A DNA stretch of 64,000 nucleotides, taken from the NCBI GenBank assembly GCA_039028615.1, contig JBCCHT010000043.1, positions 41,503-105,502 of the forward strand, written 5' to 3'. Both the position numbers and the translations under genes were made by a program. This document shows positions 10,385 to 20,320 of this stretch, one piece after another. The notes below the pieces were generated by a model, which was not told the origin of the DNA, ran no database searches, and saw only the letters and a list, made by a program, of their open reading frames with translations. Each line of letters begins with the position of its first letter. The first letter of the stretch is position 1. The stretch is from Myxococcota bacterium (GTDB lineage Bacteria > Myxococcota_A > Polyangia > Nannocystales > Nannocystaceae).

Positions 10385-11152
10385 GTGCTGGCGCTGCTGT
10401 TCCCGCCGTCTCTCGGCCACGTCGCGGCGTCAGCGCGAGCCAGTCTGCTCAGTCAGTGGTTTGCCCGGCAGCTCGGGGTCGAAGTCGACATCCGCGTAGC
10501 CGACAGCTACGAGGCCTTGCGCGGTGCCATCGAGCAGGGCGAGGTCGACCTGGCGTGGGCCCCTCCCTTCGTGTGTGCCGCCGTGCAGGAACACGCGCAC
10601 ACGATCCTCAAGGCGAGCCGAGGGGGGCAGTCGATGTACCGCTCCGCGATCATCGCCCGCCGCGGGGAGCTGTCGACGGTGGAGGAACTTCCGGGTCGTC
10701 ACGCAGCCTGGGTCGACCGACTCTCGACCGCGGGCTACCTGCTGCCCATGGCCCGACTCCGCGGCCTGGGCTACGAGCCCGACGACACCTTCGCCTCGCA
10801 GAGCTTCATGGGTTCCTACGGCCGCGCGGTGCGGGCCGTGCTCGACCGAGACGCAGACCTGTGTGCGGTCTACGTCCGCGACGCGACCACCGAGTCCGTC
10901 GACGAGACTCTGGTCGACCTCGTCGGCGAGACCGACCAGATCCACGCCGTGGACTTCACCGCCGAAGTGCCCAGCGACGGGTTGGTCGTCGTGCAGAAGA
11001 AGGGGCATACCGAGCTCGAGCACGTCGTGGAGCGCCTACGATCGCTGAGCGATGGCCGTACCCACACGATGCTGCTGACGATCTTCGACGCCGAAGCGCT
11101 CGAGCCCGCCAAGCCCAGCGACTACGACGAGCTCCGGCTGGCCCTGCGCTAG
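10385..11152 (+). CDS. PhnD/phosphonate-type substrate-binding-fold protein
   Basis: SYEAL...GEVDLAW, YRSAII, DRLSTAGYLLP, FMGSY...VRAVL...AD, VPSD. Confidence 0.8.
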   Translation: MLALLFPPSLGHVAASARASLLSQWFARQLGVEVDIRVADSYEALRGAIEQGEVDLAWAPPFVCAAVQEHAHTILKASRGGQSMYRSAIIARRGELSTVEELPGRHAAWVDRLSTAGYLLPMARLRGLGYEPDDTFASQSFMGSYGRAVRAVLDRDADLCAVYVRDATTESVDETLVDLVGETDQIHAVDFTAEVPSDGLVVVQKKGHTELEHVVERLRSLSDGRTHTMLLTIFDAEALEPAKPSDYDELRLALR

Positions 11153-13149
11153 ATCAGCTGCACATCGGCCATGATCTCGACCAATGCGGGGCCCTCGTAG
11201 GCCAGCGCCGCGGCCAGGGCTTCGTCGAGCTGGTCGGCGCGCTCGACCCGGGCCCCGTGGGCACCGCAGATCTTCGCGTACTCGGCAAAGTTGGGGTTGT
11301 GCAGCGAGGTCTGCCACACGTGCCAGTTGCCGGCCCGCTGCTCCTTGCTGATCTTGCCCAGCTCGGCGTTGTTGACCAACACGTGGGTGATGTTCATGCC
11401 GTACTTCACCGCGGTGAGCAGCTCGCCCATGTACTGGCCAAAGCCGCCGTCGCCGGTCACGACGACCACCGGGCGCCCCGCGAAGGACGAACCCTTTTCT
11501 TGGGTCGCCGCCCAGGCCCCCATGCCCGCGGGAAAGCCAAAGCCGATGGAGCCGAGGTACCCGGACATGAGCACGGCGTGGCGCTTGCACTCGAAGTAGC
11601 GGCCGAACGAGTAGGTGTTGTTGCCGACGTCGACCGCAATGATCGCGTCCTCGGACAGGCCGCGGGTCAGCGAGTCGAAGATCGACGCCGAGCTCACGCC
11701 TTGGCCGCGGTCGTCCTGGCGACGCCGGGCCTTCTCGTCGCGCCAGATGGCCCAGCGCTCGGCGATCTGCGGCCGTTGGTCTTCGGTGTGGCTCACCTCG
11801 CCCAGGCGCTCACTCAACGCGGCCACCGTCACCGAAATCTCACCCCACACGGGGATGTCGACGGGGTGGAACTTGCCCAGCATCATCGGATCGAAGTCGA
11901 CCTGGATGATGGGCAGCTTGGGGGTGATGCCCGTGTGATTGCTGAAGCTCGCCCCGAGCACGAGCAGGCAATCGGACTCGTTCATGAAGTAGCTGGCGAT
12001 GGGCGTGCCGCTGCGCCCCAGCACGCCGCAGCCCAGGGGGTGGTCATCGGCGATCTGGCCCTTGGCCTTGAAGGTGGTGATGACCGGGCACTGCAGCTGC
12101 TCGGCCAGCGCGGTGACGGCCTCCATGTCGAAGCGCGCACCGTGGCCCACGATGATGACCGGGCGCTTGCTGTGAGAGAGCTTGTCGACCGCGGCGTCGA
12201 GGGCCTCGGGCGGCGGCGCGATGGTGCGAGGCGTCAGCCGCCCCTGGGGCCCCCCCGGCTTGGCGCCCTCGGCCGCAGGCAGGGTCTGGACCTCGTCGGG
12301 GAAGATGAGGTGCGAGACACCACGGTTGAGGATGGCGCTCTTGCTCGCGAGGTTCATCAGCTCGGCGTGCTTGCTGCCGTGCATCACCGACTGTGACCAC
12401 TGGGCGACCTTGCCGAAGGCGGCGACGAGGTCGACCTCTTGGAACGCACCCGGGCCGAGCACCTGCGTGTCGACCTGACCGGTCAGCGCGAGCACGGGCG
12501 AGCGGTCGACGTTGGCGTCCCAGAGCCCGGTGAGCAGGTTGGTCGCGCCCGGGCCCGCGATGGCCAGGCACGCCGCCGGCCGCCCGGTGAGCTTGCCGTA
12601 GGCGGAAGCGGCAAAGGAGGCCGCGCCCTCGTGGCGAATGCCGAAATAGCGCAGGTTGCCCTCTTCCTCTTGGACGCGCAGCGCGTCGGCGAGGCCGAGG
12701 TTGGAGTGGCCCACCATGCCGAAGACGGTGGTCACCCCCCAGGCGACCATGGTCTCCGCCATCACGTCGCTCACCGTGCGGACGTGGGGGAGCTCCTCTT
12801 CGATGGCCACGTAGACGCCATCGTCACGGACCTCGACTTGGAAGGTGTCGACGCCGTCGTCGAAGTCACCGGGAGAGCGACCGGTGGTGGGGTCGTAGTC
12901 CCAGCCATGCCAGGGGCAGCGCAGCAGGCCGTTTTCGATCGACCCCTCGCCGAGCGGGCCGCCCTGGTGTGGACAGCGGTTGTCGAGCGCCGCGAACTCG
13001 CCCTTGAAGTGCGTCATGCACAGGGTCTCGAGCCCGCAGGTCACCGTCTTGACGCGGCCCTCGGGGAGCTCGCTGACGTCGAGCGCCTTGTGCCACACGA
13101 GGTGGACCTTGCCGTCGCGCTTGTCCGTGTCCTTGCTGCCTTCACTCAT
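11149..13149 (-). CDS. ThDP-dependent pyruvate oxidase/acetolactate-synthase-like enzyme with N-terminal Rieske [2Fe-2S] domain
   Basis: Rieske CPHQGG...CPWHG; IRHEGAA (catalytic Glu); GPGATN; ThDP motif GDGG...NN. Confidence 0.9.
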   Translation of the reverse strand: MSEGSKDTDKRDGKVHLVWHKALDVSELPEGRVKTVTCGLETLCMTHFKGEFAALDNRCPHQGGPLGEGSIENGLLRCPWHGWDYDPTTGRSPGDFDDGVDTFQVEVRDDGVYVAIEEELPHVRTVSDVMAETMVAWGVTTVFGMVGHSNLGLADALRVQEEEGNLRYFGIRHEGAASFAASAYGKLTGRPAACLAIAGPGATNLLTGLWDANVDRSPVLALTGQVDTQVLGPGAFQEVDLVAAFGKVAQWSQSVMHGSKHAELMNLASKSAILNRGVSHLIFPDEVQTLPAAEGAKPGGPQGRLTPRTIAPPPEALDAAVDKLSHSKRPVIIVGHGARFDMEAVTALAEQLQCPVITTFKAKGQIADDHPLGCGVLGRSGTPIASYFMNESDCLLVLGASFSNHTGITPKLPIIQVDFDPMMLGKFHPVDIPVWGEISVTVAALSERLGEVSHTEDQRPQIAERWAIWRDEKARRRQDDRGQGVSSASIFDSLTRGLSEDAIIAVDVGNNTYSFGRYFECKRHAVLMSGYLGSIGFGFPAGMGAWAATQEKGSSFAGRPVVVVTGDGGFGQYMGELLTAVKYGMNITHVLVNNAELGKISKEQRAGNWHVWQTSLHNPNFAEYAKICGAHGARVERADQLDEALAAALAYEGPALVEIMADVQLI

Positions 13150-14104: not shown

Positions 14105-16495
14105 TCACGTCCGCTTGCTGGCCCGCATCACCCGGACCAAATCGGCCTCGTCTTCGGCGAAGGCCACCAGGCGATCGCCGGGCTCGATCTCCAAGTCGAG
14201 CCCGGGATTGACCAGCAGTCGCTTCTGCAGCTCGCCCTGCGGCGACGAGCCCTCGAGCGCCTCCGCGTCGTAGGCGTGCACCGCATTGGTCGCCCGATAG
14301 AGGCCCAGCGGGATGATGCCCGCGCGTGACTCGAGCCCGTACACGGTTCTTCGGACCGTTCGCCAGGTCTCGCCGTGGAACCACTCGGGCAGGGGCACGG
14401 TGTAGACCTCGGAGTTGTCATCCCGAAACGAGACGGCGCCGTTGAAGATCTCGGCGAACCCCGGGTCCACGCTGGCGGTCGCCATCCAGCTGTCGGCCAG
14501 CTCGCGCCCCTGCACGGGGATGAGCCAGCGGCGGAAGGGGTCGAAGATCTCCTCGGGGTCTTCGTCGGTGGCCTCGGCGAGGGTGACGGGCAGCGAGTGC
14601 TCCTTGCCCACGTCGTCGCCCGCCAGCGCCGGGTGCTGGAGCGGAGGGGCGACCGAAAAGCCGGTCTTGCCCAGCTCGGGACCCAGCTGCGAGCCGTGGT
14701 GCTCGAACTTGCTGCACGCCTGGTGCACCGCCCGAGCGATGCGCAGCGGGTGATAGCGCGGCCCCTGTTCTTCGTGGTCGGGGCTCTTGAGCACGATGAC
14801 CCGCGCCGCCCGGGGGATCCGCAGGCCCGCCAGGTCCTCGGGCACCTCGGGGTTCTGGTGATAGATGGTCAGCCCCTTCACCCGCGCCAGCTGCAGGCGA
14901 ACCCGCCGGGGCAGGGTGTCGGAGACGACCACGTGGATCGGCCGCGAGCGCGTCGGCCCCGGGCTCCGCAGCATGCGGATGAGCTGCAGCATGTCCTCGC
15001 GGAAGTTGAGGATCACGATGTGGTTGCGCAGCCGACGGAAGATCCGGGTCTGGTCGCGCGAGAAGATGTTGGTCAGCGCCGCGGTGAACCAGGCGAGTGA
15101 CCCGAGGCCGGCGATGGTCGCCATGGCCCCGATGAAGCGCGCCGTCGAGGACTTGAGCGCCTCCGTATCGAAGTTGCCCGTGGCGAACATGTTCATCTCC
15201 CAGAACGAGTCGTTCAGGGTGCGCACGCGGGCGTTGGAGTCGTGCTCGATGGTCCACACCAAGAAGGTGGCGAGCATGACGATGGTGACGAAGCCGGCGA
15301 AGGGGATCAGCGGGTTGGACAGCTGCCCCTCGAGGTTGGCCTCGAGCGGATCCTTGAGCAGACCGCGGCGCTTGAGCAGCCGCCGCACGAAGAACACCAG
15401 CAGGCCGAGGCCGATGGCCATGGCCAGGTTGCGGAGCCAGCGGGACCGGATCTCGTCGCGCTCGCGCTGCTCGGACACCCGATGCAAGGGGATCGGCTCC
15501 TGCTCGGCAAAGTCGCGCCAGCGGTGCTGGATGCCCAGCGCGTTGTGATCGGGGTGCTGCTCGACCCAGTGCACCGCATCGAGCAGCGCATTGACGGCGA
15601 AGTCGATTTCCTCGGCCCGATCGTCGGGCGGCAACGAGGTCAGCAGCACCGTGGTCACGCACACGGTGGGCACCGCGTAGTCGAGGCCGGGATAGGTGTC
15701 GGCCTCGATCTGGCACACGCGGTAATAGGGGTAGCCGTCGATGAGGCGATCGAGCACCTCGTCGGGCAGCGGGTTGACCGTGGCCACGCCGCTGCCGACC
15801 ACCTGGGCGATGATTTCGTGGCCGGGCTCGGTGGTGCGCAGCATGACCCGCAGGTCGCCGCTGCGCAGGGCCTTGAACGCGGCCGAGCTGCCGCTCTGCT
15901 GGAGCTGGAGTTCCTCGGGCGTCAGCCCGGCCGCCCCCACCAGCACCTTGGCCGTCTCGAAGCTGCCCGAGCCGTCCTTGCCCATGAACAGGCGATGCTT
16001 GGAGAGATCGGTGAACGAGTCCAGTCGCAGCGGGCGACGCACGAGCACGTGCACCGCCCCGTCGGTCATGGCGGAGATGAGGCGCAGGTGCGAGCCGTGG
16101 GCATCCTCGGCGGAGACCTTGCACATGAAGCCGCCGGCCTTCTCGAGCGCCACTTCGTCGGACTCGCCTTCGTCGAGCGCATGGTGGGCGGCCTCGCTGG
16201 CCTTGAACGCCTCGGCGGCCACGTCGTACTGCACCAAGGCAAAGTCGAGCTGGCCCTGCAGCAGCCGATGGATGTTGTCGCAGGACCCCTTGGTGTTGTG
16301 GATGTCGATGCTGATCTTCTCGCCGGTATGCTCGAGGCCTTCGGCCACCGCCTTGGAGATCCGGGTGAACCCGCCCGTCTTGCTGCCCGCGCCCCAGCGA
16401 TAAGTGGGCGTGTCCGCGAAGGCCCGCTGCGGGATCGAGCCCAGCAGCAGCACCCACGGGAGCATCAGCACCAGGCGTCGGATCGAGTCCCTCAT
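14105..16495 (-). CDS. Fusion of TAXI-family solute-binding domain, pore-loop ion channel and RCK domain (796 aa)
   Basis: Real start MRDSIRR at 16495 (ATGA overlap). Signal peptide; TAXI motifs TKGSCDN, DFALVQYD, GKDGSGS, DTYPG...VPT, PIPLH; TM; M1; pore helix DSFWEMNMFA; TGNFD; M2; RCK NHIVILNF...VNPG...GDRLVAFA. Confidence 0.8.
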   Translation of the reverse strand: MRDSIRRLVLMLPWVLLLGSIPQRAFADTPTYRWGAGSKTGGFTRISKAVAEGLEHTGEKISIDIHNTKGSCDNIHRLLQGQLDFALVQYDVAAEAFKASEAAHHALDEGESDEVALEKAGGFMCKVSAEDAHGSHLRLISAMTDGAVHVLVRRPLRLDSFTDLSKHRLFMGKDGSGSFETAKVLVGAAGLTPEELQLQQSGSSAAFKALRSGDLRVMLRTTEPGHEIIAQVVGSGVATVNPLPDEVLDRLIDGYPYYRVCQIEADTYPGLDYAVPTVCVTTVLLTSLPPDDRAEEIDFAVNALLDAVHWVEQHPDHNALGIQHRWRDFAEQEPIPLHRVSEQRERDEIRSRWLRNLAMAIGLGLLVFFVRRLLKRRGLLKDPLEANLEGQLSNPLIPFAGFVTIVMLATFLVWTIEHDSNARVRTLNDSFWEMNMFATGNFDTEALKSSTARFIGAMATIAGLGSLAWFTAALTNIFSRDQTRIFRRLRNHIVILNFREDMLQLIRMLRSPGPTRSRPIHVVVSDTLPRRVRLQLARVKGLTIYHQNPEVPEDLAGLRIPRAARVIVLKSPDHEEQGPRYHPLRIARAVHQACSKFEHHGSQLGPELGKTGFSVAPPLQHPALAGDDVGKEHSLPVTLAEATDEDPEEIFDPFRRWLIPVQGRELADSWMATASVDPGFAEIFNGAVSFRDDNSEVYTVPLPEWFHGETWRTVRRTVYGLESRAGIIPLGLYRATNAVHAYDAEALEGSSPQGELQKRLLVNPGLDLEIEPGDRLVAFAEDEADLVRVMRASKRT

Positions 16496-17253
16496 GCGTC
16501 CACCAGCACCAGCAGGCCCGCCGCGTCGCGCACGGGGTGACGGGGACCGGGGTTGATCACCAGCGCGGGGTCGTCCCCCGGCTCGCTCGGGGGCAGCTGC
16601 AGGCCGATGGGCGTCACCGGGCGCCCCTGCTCGTCGCTCTCCACATCGCGAGCCACATCGAAGAAGCTGCCCTCGCGCCACTGCGGCTGGACCTCCCACA
16701 GCCGCACGCGATAGCGACCACGCAGCAGCCCGTAGACGAACTGGAACACGCCCAGATCGACGCACGCGTGGGCCAGCAGAGCCGCCCGCAGATAGCCGGG
16801 ATAGAACACGGTGGCGACGCCGAGCCCCGCGAACTCGTAGGCGGCTTCGGGGTCCTCGACCTCGACGAGGATGTTGGGCACCGCACCGGAGCTGCAGGCC
16901 CGTGCCACCGCCACGCAGGTGAGGCGGGACGCGGCATCGGGCTCTTCGGCGAAGCGATCGGGCAGCACGATCACCGAGCGTGCCGACGCGATGTCGACCT
17001 GCTTGCGGAGCGTCCGCGCCAGCGGATCGAGGCCTTCGGCCAACCCGGGCGCCTGGACGTACCGCAGCAGCGATCGCGCCGAGCTGTCGGACAAGGCCTG
17101 CTCGACGTCGGCGGCGGCCTCGGTCCCCACACACACCACGGGCGGCAGCTCACCGGGCGAAGGGGGCGCCACTTGGGCCAGGGCTCGGACCAGTCCCTGT
17201 GCTTCGGGTGACCAGTTGATGATCACCATGGGAGCGTAGGGCTTGTCCGTCAC
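16492..17253 (-). CDS. Stand-alone RCK (TrkA-like N+C) regulatory domain protein
   Basis: MVIINWS, ARSVIVLPD, PDAAS, ILVEVEDPE, LLAHACVDLG, PIGL, VINPG. No TM segment. Stop overlaps the channel-gene start. Confidence 0.75.
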   Translation of the reverse strand: MTDKPYAPMVIINWSPEAQGLVRALAQVAPPSPGELPPVVCVGTEAAADVEQALSDSSARSLLRYVQAPGLAEGLDPLARTLRKQVDIASARSVIVLPDRFAEEPDAASRLTCVAVARACSSGAVPNILVEVEDPEAAYEFAGLGVATVFYPGYLRAALLAHACVDLGVFQFVYGLLRGRYRVRLWEVQPQWREGSFFDVARDVESDEQGRPVTPIGLQLPPSEPGDDPALVINPGPRHPVRDAAGLLVLVDA

Positions 17254-17352: not shown

Positions 17353-18177
17353 ATGCCCCCCACCGAGTTCCTGGTCTTGGGCCTGGTGGCCCTGCTCTCG
17401 TTTGGGCTGAGTTACCTCGGCGCATCGGTGGGCTTGGTGTTCGGGCAGCTGCGCCTGCCGATCCTCGTGTACTGGCTGGGCTCGCCCGTCGTGGGGGCCG
17501 CCACCAGTCTGTGCATCTCGGCCGTGGCTGCGCTGGTGGGCGCGGCTCGACACGCCCGCGCGGGACGGGTCGACCCGCGGCTGTTGGTGACGATCGCCGT
17601 TCCGTCGGCCATCGCCGCGTGGCTGTCCGCTCAGATCGCCCCGCGCCTCGACCCCGGCCTCGTCAAGCTCTTCATCGGCCTGACCTTGGTCATCACCGGC
17701 TTGGTGATGCTGTGGTCGATGGCCCGGAGCCGACGCGAGGCGCTCGAGCGCAAGGGGCACGACGGCGCCGACGAGGTTGTCGACGACGATCCCCCCGAGG
17801 ACGACGCGGCCCCACGGCCGCAGCTGGTGGCCGAGGTAGGTGTAGGCGCGAGCTTGGGCGCCATCGCGGGTGTTGTGGGGCTCCTGCTCGGCACCCTGCG
17901 ATTGCCCGCCATGATGAAGCTCGGGGTCCAGGCCGACCGCGCCGTCGGCACCAACATGGCGATCGGCAGCATCACCGGGCTGGTTGCCGGAACGGCGGCC
18001 ATGACCGAGGGGAACGTCGACCTGTGGGCATTCGGGGTGATCACCCCCGCCACCATGATCGGGGCCTATCTCGGCGCCAGCACCACGGGCAAGCTCGACA
18101 AGGCGACCCTCCGCAAGCTCATCGCCTGGTCGCTGCTCGGGCTGGGAAGTTGGATGGCCGCCGAGCCTTGGTGGTGA
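17353..18177 (+). CDS. TauE/SafE (TSUP) family membrane exporter
   Basis: Multiple hydrophobic segments, AATSL, AVGTN, GAYLGA two-repeat pattern. Confidence 0.85.
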   Translation: MPPTEFLVLGLVALLSFGLSYLGASVGLVFGQLRLPILVYWLGSPVVGAATSLCISAVAALVGAARHARAGRVDPRLLVTIAVPSAIAAWLSAQIAPRLDPGLVKLFIGLTLVITGLVMLWSMARSRREALERKGHDGADEVVDDDPPEDDAAPRPQLVAEVGVGASLGAIAGVVGLLLGTLRLPAMMKLGVQADRAVGTNMAIGSITGLVAGTAAMTEGNVDLWAFGVITPATMIGAYLGASTTGKLDKATLRKLIAWSLLGLGSWMAAEPWW

Positions 18178-18310
18178 GCCGAACGACGTTGAGGGAAGAT
18201 GCGCGTGATCGAGCGCCACCGATCCCAATTCAAGCCTCTTGCACGTCCATTGACTTGTCTGGGACCATTTGTGGGTATTTCAGCCGATTTCGGCCAGCCC
18301 GCTCACGCAC

Positions 18311-20320
<2,010 letters not shown>

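Follow-up and report, generated by a model that had tools for sequence, protein, structure and literature searches.

The question raised by this locus is whether a TAXI-type binding protein, fused in one reading frame to a pore-loop channel and an RCK domain, forms a ligand-gated channel together with a separately encoded RCK protein. The channel gene (14105..16495, minus strand, ATG at 16495) lies in a 64-kb window, which is the whole stretch of DNA that was analysed, and encodes a protein of 796 aa (P0001) composed of signal peptide, TAXI domain, an extra membrane helix (TM0), M1, pore helix, filter, M2 and RCK. This architecture had been proposed in an earlier note on this DNA and is borne out by TIGR02122 and PF16868, Foldseek, hhalign and an AlphaFold2 model. 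Directly upstream, a gene for a 253-aa protein (P0002; 16492..17253, minus strand) encodes only an RCK domain, which is proposed to be the soluble subunit of the ring. The stop codon of this gene overlaps the start codon of the channel gene as ATGA at 16492-16495 (TCAT on the plus strand), and the coordinates thereby confirm the overlap that had been described. A TauE/SafE (TSUP) permease gene (17353..18177, plus strand; PF01925, E 2.2e-37) is divergent from the RCK-only gene, with 99 bases separating it from the start of the latter. No sigma-70-like promoter was found at the locus, and no terminator beyond chance. It appears probable that P0001 and the 253-aa protein together constitute a ligand-sensing, RCK-regulated cation channel.

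P0001 begins with a probable Sec signal peptide (aa 1-27; 16415..16495, minus strand), which was recognised by hydropathy and, by eye, from its basic N-terminus, its hydrophobic core and the AFA at its end. An N-terminal hydrophobic stretch is present in 93 of the 107 full-length close homologues in the alignment, which represent the P0001 clade. The TAXI solute-binding domain (aa 28-345; 15461..16414, minus strand) matches TIGR02122 with 108.9 bits (cut-off: 84.35) and PF16868 with E 2.6e-27, and its fold matches that of VcGluP (9ibo; Z 29.1, rmsd 2.9, 289 aligned). The cysteines C72, C125, C261 and C279 of this domain are invariant. When the pocket residues of VcGluP (PMC11574862) were mapped, by sequence alignment only, the positions equivalent to S75, Q93 and G156 turned out to be invariant in 107/107. 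Y45 is a main affinity determinant of VcGluP. Its position is occupied by F in 90 of the 107 clade members, that of E125 by S, G or A in 104 and by E in two, and that of Y200 by R in 83. As the Y45 and E125 positions are altered, binding in the P0001 clade may be weak or directed at another ligand. The pocket of the wide family has Y at the Y45 position (76/76), Q (76/76) and E or D (75/76). As judged from these residues, the most likely ligand would be glutamate or glutamine for the wide family, and for the P0001 clade an anionic acid other than these. In the fused form a conserved arginine is followed by a hydrophobic residue (L in 73 of 94 domains, V or L in 100 of 107 in the P0001 clade), whereas the equivalent position of stand-alone TAXI domains is S or A in 29 of 35. 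This fused-specific residue is one modest lead, as the stand-alone domains compared were few and had been chosen by likeness to the query.

The TAXI domain of P0001 is the only one in the genome. No DctM gene is present within the window, and the two DctM genes of the genome are located on other contigs, where each has a DctP gene of its own at a distance of about 1.5-1.7 kb. A TAXI-type TRAP permease, searched for as a TIGR02123 match over the cut-off, was likewise not found in the genome (96.7% complete). The earlier observation that the window has no DctM gene holds, and the lack of a TRAP partner is supported for the genome as well. The identity of a TAXI-TRAP transporter was rejected, as neither the operon nor the genome contains a fused DctQM permease.

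A different permease could, however, take the place of the TRAP partner. The channel might be gated by RCK domains and not by the TAXI domain, with the latter only tethered and handing over its substrate to another permease, of which TauE/TSUP is the most plausible, in the manner of TAXI-GltS. The TauE gene is divergent from the RCK gene in 8/9 genome loci and in 18/20 metagenome loci with room for it, and the neighbours other than these two genes differ from locus to locus. Pairing of TAXI proteins with a non-TRAP transporter is known from one study (PMC12344293), and another describes sulfur compounds and organic acids as the presumed substrates of TSUP proteins (PMC12671195). The poor conservation of TM0 would also fit a tethered, non-gating domain. 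Yet a search with one query gave no TauE match near the fusion in 22 loci of the distant family, 19 of them distinct and with flanks of 1.5-4 kb, though the fusion is kept across phyla, and the deep-branching locus L102 does not have a TauE neighbour either. The divergent position may reflect plain family synteny, and transport by a binding protein gives no reason for keeping the fusion to a pore. This explanation is regarded as rather unlikely, although it ranks above the other alternatives.

The membrane region of P0001 contains TM0 (about aa 352-374; 15374..15442), assigned from alignment conservation, AlphaFold2 model and hydropathy, M1 (about aa 396-416; 15248..15310), assigned from model and hydropathy, and a pore helix with a non-canonical filter (aa 427-444; 15164..15217) and the M2 inner helix (about aa 450-480; 15056..15148), both assigned from alignments and model (all on the minus strand). 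Hydrophobic peaks begin at residues 356, 396 and 454, and the AlphaFold2 model places helices at 339-376, 396-421, 427-438 (pore helix) and 450-488, with a pLDDT of only 50-70 there. The pore of P0001 was not detected by Pfam (no Ion_trans_2). The assignment of pore and RCK follows from a Foldseek match to full-length MthK (E 1.3e-12), a match to the wide-family profile (hhalign probability 100, 669 columns) and the match of the RCK-gene profile to CASTOR/DMI1 rings. Some members of the wide family carry Ion_trans_2, TrkA_N and Castor_Poll_mid in Pfam, and the wide-family profile matches CASTOR (E 6e-51), its best channel match, followed by BK (7e-35), MthK (3e-31) and GsuK-type entries. The model of the family member P0265 has a pLDDT of 92.4, and its residues 358-704, pore included, align with full-length MthK (6ux7; Z 19.4, rmsd 4.0, 293 aligned); the match of the P0001 model to Slo1 has an rmsd of 13.6. 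The M1-pore helix-filter-M2 fold is hence firm for P0265, and for P0001 it is predicted by a low-confidence model. An Atlas search with the pore-RCK part yielded scores which were all <0.9 and are leads only. The predicted topology, with TAXI outside and RCK inside, agrees with hydropathy and with the distribution of K and R, of which a mean of 5.3 is found in the basic cytoplasmic loop between TM0 and M1 and of 4.4 after M2; the outer loops have 2.0 and 1.0 on average. From the basic loops and the RCK, the end of M2 in P0001 is assigned to the cytoplasm.

The pore is the best-conserved part of the protein (mean column conservation 0.85, 53/93 columns at >=95%; TAXI: 0.64). The filter residues A438, T439, G440, N441 and F442 (ATGNF) and the M2 glycines G456, G463 and G465 are invariant in 107/107 sequences and, like the pore helix, remain so in a deeper alignment that extends to 34% identity. 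The potassium signature TxGYG or TxGFG was found in none of the 107 clade members and none of 76 wide-family members; the filters of the wide family are acidic (SGLED, SGFED). As judged from the missing signature, selectivity for K+ is unlikely, and a real channel of this kind could fail to complement E. coli deficient in K+ uptake. The filter of P0001 has neither TxGYG nor an aspartate at the position of CASTOR D265, an observation that counts against the proposed channel.

P0001 contains one RCK domain (N-lobe and C-lobe, aa 490-793; 14117..15028, minus strand), identified by Foldseek and hhalign. It and the RCK of the 253-aa protein are both below the Pfam cut-off (16.4 vs 24; 14.2 vs 23.8). 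Compared with the PDB, the RCK-gene profile matched only CASTOR/DMI1 rings (3 of 177,635 sequences at E<=1). A GxGxxG nucleotide-binding motif is absent from both RCKs. In the soluble RCK, the positions that correspond to the CASTOR Ca(I) site still carry acids (D134 in 112/112, E or D136 in 112/112). The RCK gene is located directly upstream of the channel gene in 10/10 genome loci and 21/21 metagenome loci, 31/31 overall, counting those relative loci with enough flank, so that the conservation of the adjoining gene could be confirmed.

The linker before the RCK of P0001 contains neither an in-frame start codon nor an SD-like site. An internal SD with start codon before the RCK is found at 19 of 20 scored single-RCK loci which do not have an RCK gene, and at two of 38 loci of the P0001 clade, both borderline. 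As read from the sequences, the family would complete an eight-RCK ring in three ways: by an MthK-like internal start, by tandem RCKs, or, in the P0001 clade, by a separate gene replacing the internal start. Structure prediction of a heterodimer of tethered RCK and RCK-only protein gave a score of 0.84 (best of three controls: 0.00), with runs sharing at least 89% of contacts and a partner pLDDT of at least 87; the mark applied is reached by 116 of 157 solved pairs and by two of 215 mismatched pairs, and the pass may stem from likeness to solved complexes. Gene linkage, loss of the internal start in the clade and the predicted heterodimer all support the earlier suggestion of a hetero-RCK ring with the neighbouring gene product. 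The comparison with an MthK-type ring made there stands as far as the combination of soluble and tethered RCKs is concerned, but the RCK sequences are closest to CASTOR/DMI1 rings and do not contain the nucleotide motif. In a tree from a quick search (LG+G4, 102 rows, with a long-branch warning) both RCKs are on long branches, that of the soluble RCKs being of unresolved position and not sister to tandem RCK2. An origin of the separate RCK as a split-off RCK2 of tandem forms is not supported by this tree.

These features of filter and ring also allow for a non-conducting receptor, in which the channel-like core would pass little or no ion and a ligand-induced change of shape would be transmitted via the RCK ring to a cytoplasmic partner. 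This would fit a filter that matches neither the K+ signature nor the acidic filter of CASTOR, the long branches of both RCKs, and the loss from the tethered RCK of the P0001 clade (H/D-P-L-R) of an aspartate, D546, which is invariant in the wide family (76/76). However, the invariance of filter, pore helix and M2 glycines described above is as expected of a working pore, and signalling genes are not among the constant neighbours at the compared loci. A silent core is regarded as unlikely. Even less probable is that the pore conducts the small ligand itself, as delivered by the TAXI domain. The altered filter and the usual role of TAXI domains, which pass substrate on to a membrane protein, would fit this; but the same pore type exists without any TAXI domain (L048, L053-L058, L060), the acidic filters of the wide family would repel an anion, and pore-loop filters are narrow. 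An assembly artefact or chance fusion, finally, is practically ruled out, as the 107 full-length homologues come from many sources, including, by source name, cultured Nannocystaceae, and TAXI, pore and RCK occur together in at least 103 clusters among the 150 clusters at 50% identity listed. P0001 is no one-off; its clade is a divergent branch within a wide family that is spread over several phyla.

The ligand-sensing, RCK-regulated cation channel is therefore preferred. By homology to MthK, BK and CASTOR, four copies of the 796-aa protein would form a pore-loop channel in the normal K-channel orientation. The TAXI domain of each subunit would be exported and held on the outer face by TM0, as hydropathy and charge suggest, and the four tethered RCKs would build an eight-RCK ring with four copies of the 253-aa protein, the pairing being supported by the heterodimer prediction and the 4+4 arrangement being presumed. 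A small acidic solute would close the TAXI domain and thereby change the opening of the pore. TM0 is the only covalent link between sensor and pore, yet it is poorly conserved (2/29 columns at >=95%), which counts against coupling. Docking on the turret or the outer pore appears to be a more likely route than a pull on TM0; the occurrence of relatives with two TAXI domains, and of one (L027) in which numerous additional membrane helices separate TAXI and pore, suggests a loose coupling of sensor and pore. The ring would provide a further control on the cytoplasmic side, for which Ca2+ or a different divalent ion is a more probable signal than a nucleotide, and the pore would probably pass cations without strict K+ selectivity, possibly including Ca2+.

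In its widest form the proposal is held tentatively, at somewhat less than even confidence: an independent bacterial invention of a ligand-gated channel, in which a TRAP-type binding protein was grafted on a CASTOR/MthK-like, possibly Ca2+-permeable pore gated from both membrane sides. Such a receptor would sense glutamate in most phyla; in Nannocystaceae it would have been adapted to a different organic acid and to a hetero-octameric RCK ring encoded by two genes. To our knowledge, few bacterial channels open on an outside chemical. In the literature searched, mostly the main text of openly accessible papers, no TAXI-channel fusion was described, and no characterised channel was found which couples an intact binding protein to a pore via a single helix or which has a complete periplasmic binding protein together with a right-side-out pore and an RCK ring. 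If the gating is true, a function like that of glutamate receptors would have been reached by a separate path, and TAXI proteins would have a new role; CASTOR/DMI1-like rings and non-potassium filters could then be studied in simple bacterial models. The three routes of ring completion within one family would be a natural test of RCK-ring evolution, and the presence of the genes in cultured Nannocystaceae makes testing practical.

Among known systems, the Ca2+-gated K+ channel MthK (1lnq, 6oly, 6ux7) shares with P0001 the M1-pore-M2 unit and one RCK per subunit. MthK requires four additional soluble RCKs (PMC2154359); its mode of internal start is used by the wider family, whereas in the P0001 clade a separate gene encodes the soluble RCK, and the sequence of the latter is not that of the tethered RCK. 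P0001 further differs from MthK in its filter, its extra helix and its exported TAXI domain. GluR0 and other prokaryotic iGluRs also join a periplasmic binding-protein fold to a pore-loop channel. The iGluR-type binding domain is split in two around membrane helices, and the pore is inverted (PMC2950845); P0001 has a whole N-terminal TAXI-family domain, and its pore is probably right side out, with the RCK ring in the cytoplasm. TAXI-TRAP systems (VcGluP, TtGluBP) and TAXI-GltS share with P0001 the TAXI fold and several pocket residues, but P0001 differs from them by the lack of a DctQM or GltS partner, the fusion to a channel and the altered pocket of its clade. Rings of two unlike RCK domains, as proposed here, occur in GsuK, BK/Slo1 and TM1088A/B, the ring of TM1088 being the product of two genes (PMC4380455). 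GsuK and BK have, unlike P0001, tandem RCKs and K+ filters, RCK2 of GsuK has a GxGxxG nucleotide site, and TM1088 serves a Trk transporter. The plant Ca2+-regulated Ca2+ channels CASTOR/POLLUX/DMI1 (6o6j, 7vm8) are the channels to which the RCK-only protein is closest in sequence. CASTOR-type channels and the P0001 system have in common a non-TVGYG filter with Gly-Asn, a ring of two different RCKs, which for P0001 is predicted, and the Ca(I) acids; CASTOR, however, carries its RCKs in tandem in one chain and has no binding-protein domain. The CASTOR filter is ADS(A)GNHA, of which the aspartate D265 is needed for current (PMC6697748), while the filter of P0001, FATGNF, has no aspartate before GN in either register, the register being uncertain by one residue.

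The channel ORF (796 aa, P0001; 14105-16495, minus strand) and the RCK-only ORF (253 aa, P0002; 16492-17253, minus strand), both taken from ORF reading, overlap in an ATGA in which the stop of the latter meets the start of the former. Residues 28-345 of P0001 constitute a TAXI domain (TIGR02122, 108.9 bits vs a cut-off of 84.35), whose top PDB matches are glutamate-binding TAXI proteins from Thermus and Vibrio. C-terminal to it follow three hydrophobic helices, the second and third separated by a short one, and then the RCK domain. As Pfam did not detect the pore of P0001 and scored the RCKs of both proteins below its cut-off, pore and RCKs were assigned by structure and profiles. Foldseek with the P0001 model ranked TAXI proteins first and full-length MthK next (E 1.3e-12), and the matches of the 253-aa family profile among PDB sequences were confined to the CASTOR and DMI1 gating rings. 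ORF, TIGR02122, Foldseek and profiles agree with the earlier note, which had placed signal peptide, TAXI, pore and RCK in one ORF.

The TAXI-pore-RCK fusion is not an artefact. The alternative raised earlier, a fusion absent from relatives, fails, as 122 homologues were found, with Nannocystaceae as source names (Paraliomyxa, Nannocystis, Enhygromyxa, Plesiocystis, Pseudenhygromyxa), and 107 of the 120 listed (750-830 aa, query included) were aligned. Whole genomes of the same family gave a strong channel match in 11 of 24 and a weak one in one more; 1 of 16 from other families matched weakly. Mean column conservation across the 107 was highest in the pore region (0.85, vs 0.64 for TAXI and 0.49 for TM0, the extra helix between TAXI domain and pore unit). 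The filter ATGNF is invariant in all 107 and also in a deeper 10-sequence alignment with identity down to 34%. Tandem double-TAXI forms of 1086-1151 aa also exist (P0034, P0036, P0038-P0041; L009/L015 in G004), some with the source names Enhygromyxa, Plesiocystis and Pseudenhygromyxa.

An exhaustive search yielded 1363 clusters at E<=0.001. The 150 listed comprised 85 with TAXI, pore and one RCK, 18 with two RCKs, 5 with TAXI and pore only, 30 with TAXI only and 12 TAXI-less fragments. The clade profile aligned with a 76-member profile of this distant family over 669 columns (probability 100), and the latter matched CASTOR/DMI1, BK, MthK and GsuK-type entries. The predicted structure of its member P0265 is confident (pLDDT 92.4) and matches MthK in pore and RCK alike (Z 19.4, rmsd 4.0, 293 residues). 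Named loci belong to Acidobacteriota, Planctomycetota, WOR-3 and Abditibacteriales, with Bacteroidota added by Atlas clusters. The family is sparse: centre genomes counted, 4/401, 3/301 and 11/121 sampled genomes matched at E<=1e-80, the majority of matches in the last set being without TAXI. TAXI-less two-helix channels of ~370-410 aa (L048, L053-L058, L060), whose filters are of the SGLDS or TGFED type and which have a strong internal SD and ATG ahead of the RCK, are probably the parent type to which TAXI was fused. In two WOR-3 members of ~1070-1110 aa (L027:873-4082, L029:780-4106) TAXI and pore are separated by a long hydrophobic insertion comprising several helices, and three members (L030, L031, L059) are broken by frame changes or a stop, being pseudogenes or assembly errors.

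In 93 of 107 clade homologues the N-terminus is signal-like, the TAXI domain has four cysteines that never vary, and the loops following TM0 and M2 are basic. These features make it likely that TAXI lies outside, the pore loop enters from outside and the RCK lies inside; an external TAXI and an internal RCK had been proposed before. Mean K+R was 5.3 after TM0 and 4.4 after M2, the outer loops having 2.0 and 1.0; in the distant family the values were 4.9 and 4.2 vs 0.9 and 1.1. TxGYG occurs in none of the 107 clade and none of the 76 distant members. An ungapped profile alignment sets ATGNFD of the clade opposite ISGFEN of P0265, the common distant filter being SGLED or SGFED. CASTOR, which is Ca2+-selective, likewise lacks TVGYG, its filter being ADS(A)GNHA with an essential aspartate (PMC6697748); this aspartate is unmatched in the clade. 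The pore would thus pass cations without strict K+ selectivity.

MthK requires four extra RCKs, which come from an internal start (PMC2154359), and tandem-RCK channels need none (PMC3510474). Of the distant-family single-RCK proteins, 66 of 77 have a Met shortly ahead of the first RCK strand, vs 4 of 18 tandem ones (~13% expected by chance; kin are not independent). At a threshold of -3.4 kcal/mol, chosen by us, an SD-like site with start codon precedes the RCK in 19 of 20 scored single-RCK loci (24 given, 4 unscored; TAXI-bearing ones 9/10). The corresponding figures are 2 of 3 for tandem loci and, among the scored loci of the clade (42 given), 2 of 38, both borderline. The adjacent RCK gene, whose conservation the earlier note had suggested checking, lies immediately upstream of the channel in 10 of 10 clade genome loci, one further locus beginning at a contig end, and in all 21 metagenome loci that extend far enough (some near-duplicates; 9 of 30 have no upstream DNA). 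Judged from these sequences, it may stand in place of the internal start. In L026, a single-RCK member, no internal start was seen, and the flank contains no RCK gene either.

Tethered and soluble RCK are predicted to pair, with a complex score of 0.84 vs 0.00 for the best control; the mark was reached by 116/157 solved and 2/215 mismatched pairs. Runs agreed in at least 89% of contacts, with a partner pLDDT of at least 87. As the predicted interface, formed by crossover helices and C-lobes, resembles known RCK dimers, the pass may stem from this likeness. For a ring composed of two RCK gene products, a Trk system provides an earlier example (PMC4380455). GxGxxG is absent from both RCKs. Acids of the soluble RCK aligned with CASTOR D442 and D444 (D134 and E/D136, each in 112/112; offset of the CASTOR numbering deduced from Thr323 and Arg420) point to a putative divalent-ion site. 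An origin of the soluble RCK as an offshoot of tandem RCK2 found no support in the tree, in which its branch position is unsettled and tandem forms apparently arise more than once. Three channels of the Ion_trans type (L041, L043, L044), which have an S4-like arginine helix, each adjoin a separate RCK-only gene; the two RCKs of L041 are sisters in the tree, suggesting local duplication. At L032:2978-3253 a further RCK ORF starts directly downstream of a TAXI-pore-RCK gene and is truncated where the contig stops; this may be another instance of a separately encoded RCK.

The TAXI domain of P0001 is the sole one in the genome. The missing TRAP partner, reported earlier for the window, extends genome-wide: no TAXI-type permease scored over the cut-off, and both DctM genes are paired with their own DctP. 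Compared with the pocket of the Vibrio glutamate-binding protein VcGluP (PMC11574862), the distant family keeps Y45 and Q93 (both 76/76), S75 (71/76) and E/D125 (75/76). This suggests a fit to glutamate or glutamine, and only suggests it, as 78% and 54% of TAXI proteins at large also have Y45 and Q93, respectively (PMC11574862). The clade retains S75, Q93 and G156, with F at Y45 (90/107), R at Y200 (83/107), a conserved K39 (102/107) and S/G/A at E125, an aspartate standing one residue earlier in 105/107. Its ligand would differ from that of the distant family and is probably anionic.

Sequence and models give the order of the domains, the conservation, the fold, a likely topology, the linkage of the genes and the pairing of the RCKs. 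P0001 would form a tetramer with a 4+4 ring including the 253-aa protein, conduct an ion, bind a ligand and couple the two. We favour such a ligand-modulated cation channel, at somewhat better than even confidence. Its weak point is coupling, with TM0 poorly conserved and two TAXI domains or extra helices in some members. In the main rival reading, which is rather unlikely, the channel only tethers the TAXI domain on behalf of a permease. A gene for a TauE/TSUP permease points away from the RCK gene at 8 of 9 genome loci and at 18 of the 20 metagenome loci that extend far enough. As TAXI proteins are able to work with non-TRAP transporters (PMC12344293), this supports tethering; no such gene was found near distant-family members. 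A receptor without conduction appears less probable still, and a solute channel is improbable.

Further genes lie nearby. A 666-aa ORF (11149-13149, minus), judged by inspection, fuses a thiamine-diphosphate enzyme to a domain with a Rieske-type 2Fe-2S motif; it lies close to the channel at 2 of the 9 relative genome loci. A PhnD-like binding protein (10385-11152, plus; PF12974, E 1.5e-33) has no obvious signal peptide and is surrounded by FHA- and PilZ-like genes, not ABC permease genes. A 683-aa ORF (18269-20320, plus) appears by inspection to combine Ser/Thr kinase, receiver and nucleotide-cyclase-like domains.

Searches of the openly accessible literature for the fusion or its parts, supplements aside, yielded no account of a TAXI-channel fusion. 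By term search, the word 'channel' is absent from a review on signalling roles of binding proteins (PMC8050422), and the GluR0 type is the only binding-protein fusion named in passages of a microbial K+ channel survey (PMC2234077). The parts are known; neither the TAXI-channel combination nor a two-gene ring attached to such a channel seems to have been described. The pore of P0001 would have the same orientation as in K-channels, unlike that of iGluR-type channels (PMC2950845). An engineered iGluR pore can be gated by a bacterial binding protein, although with a geometry different from that of P0001 (bioRxiv 10.1101/2021.01.27.428399).
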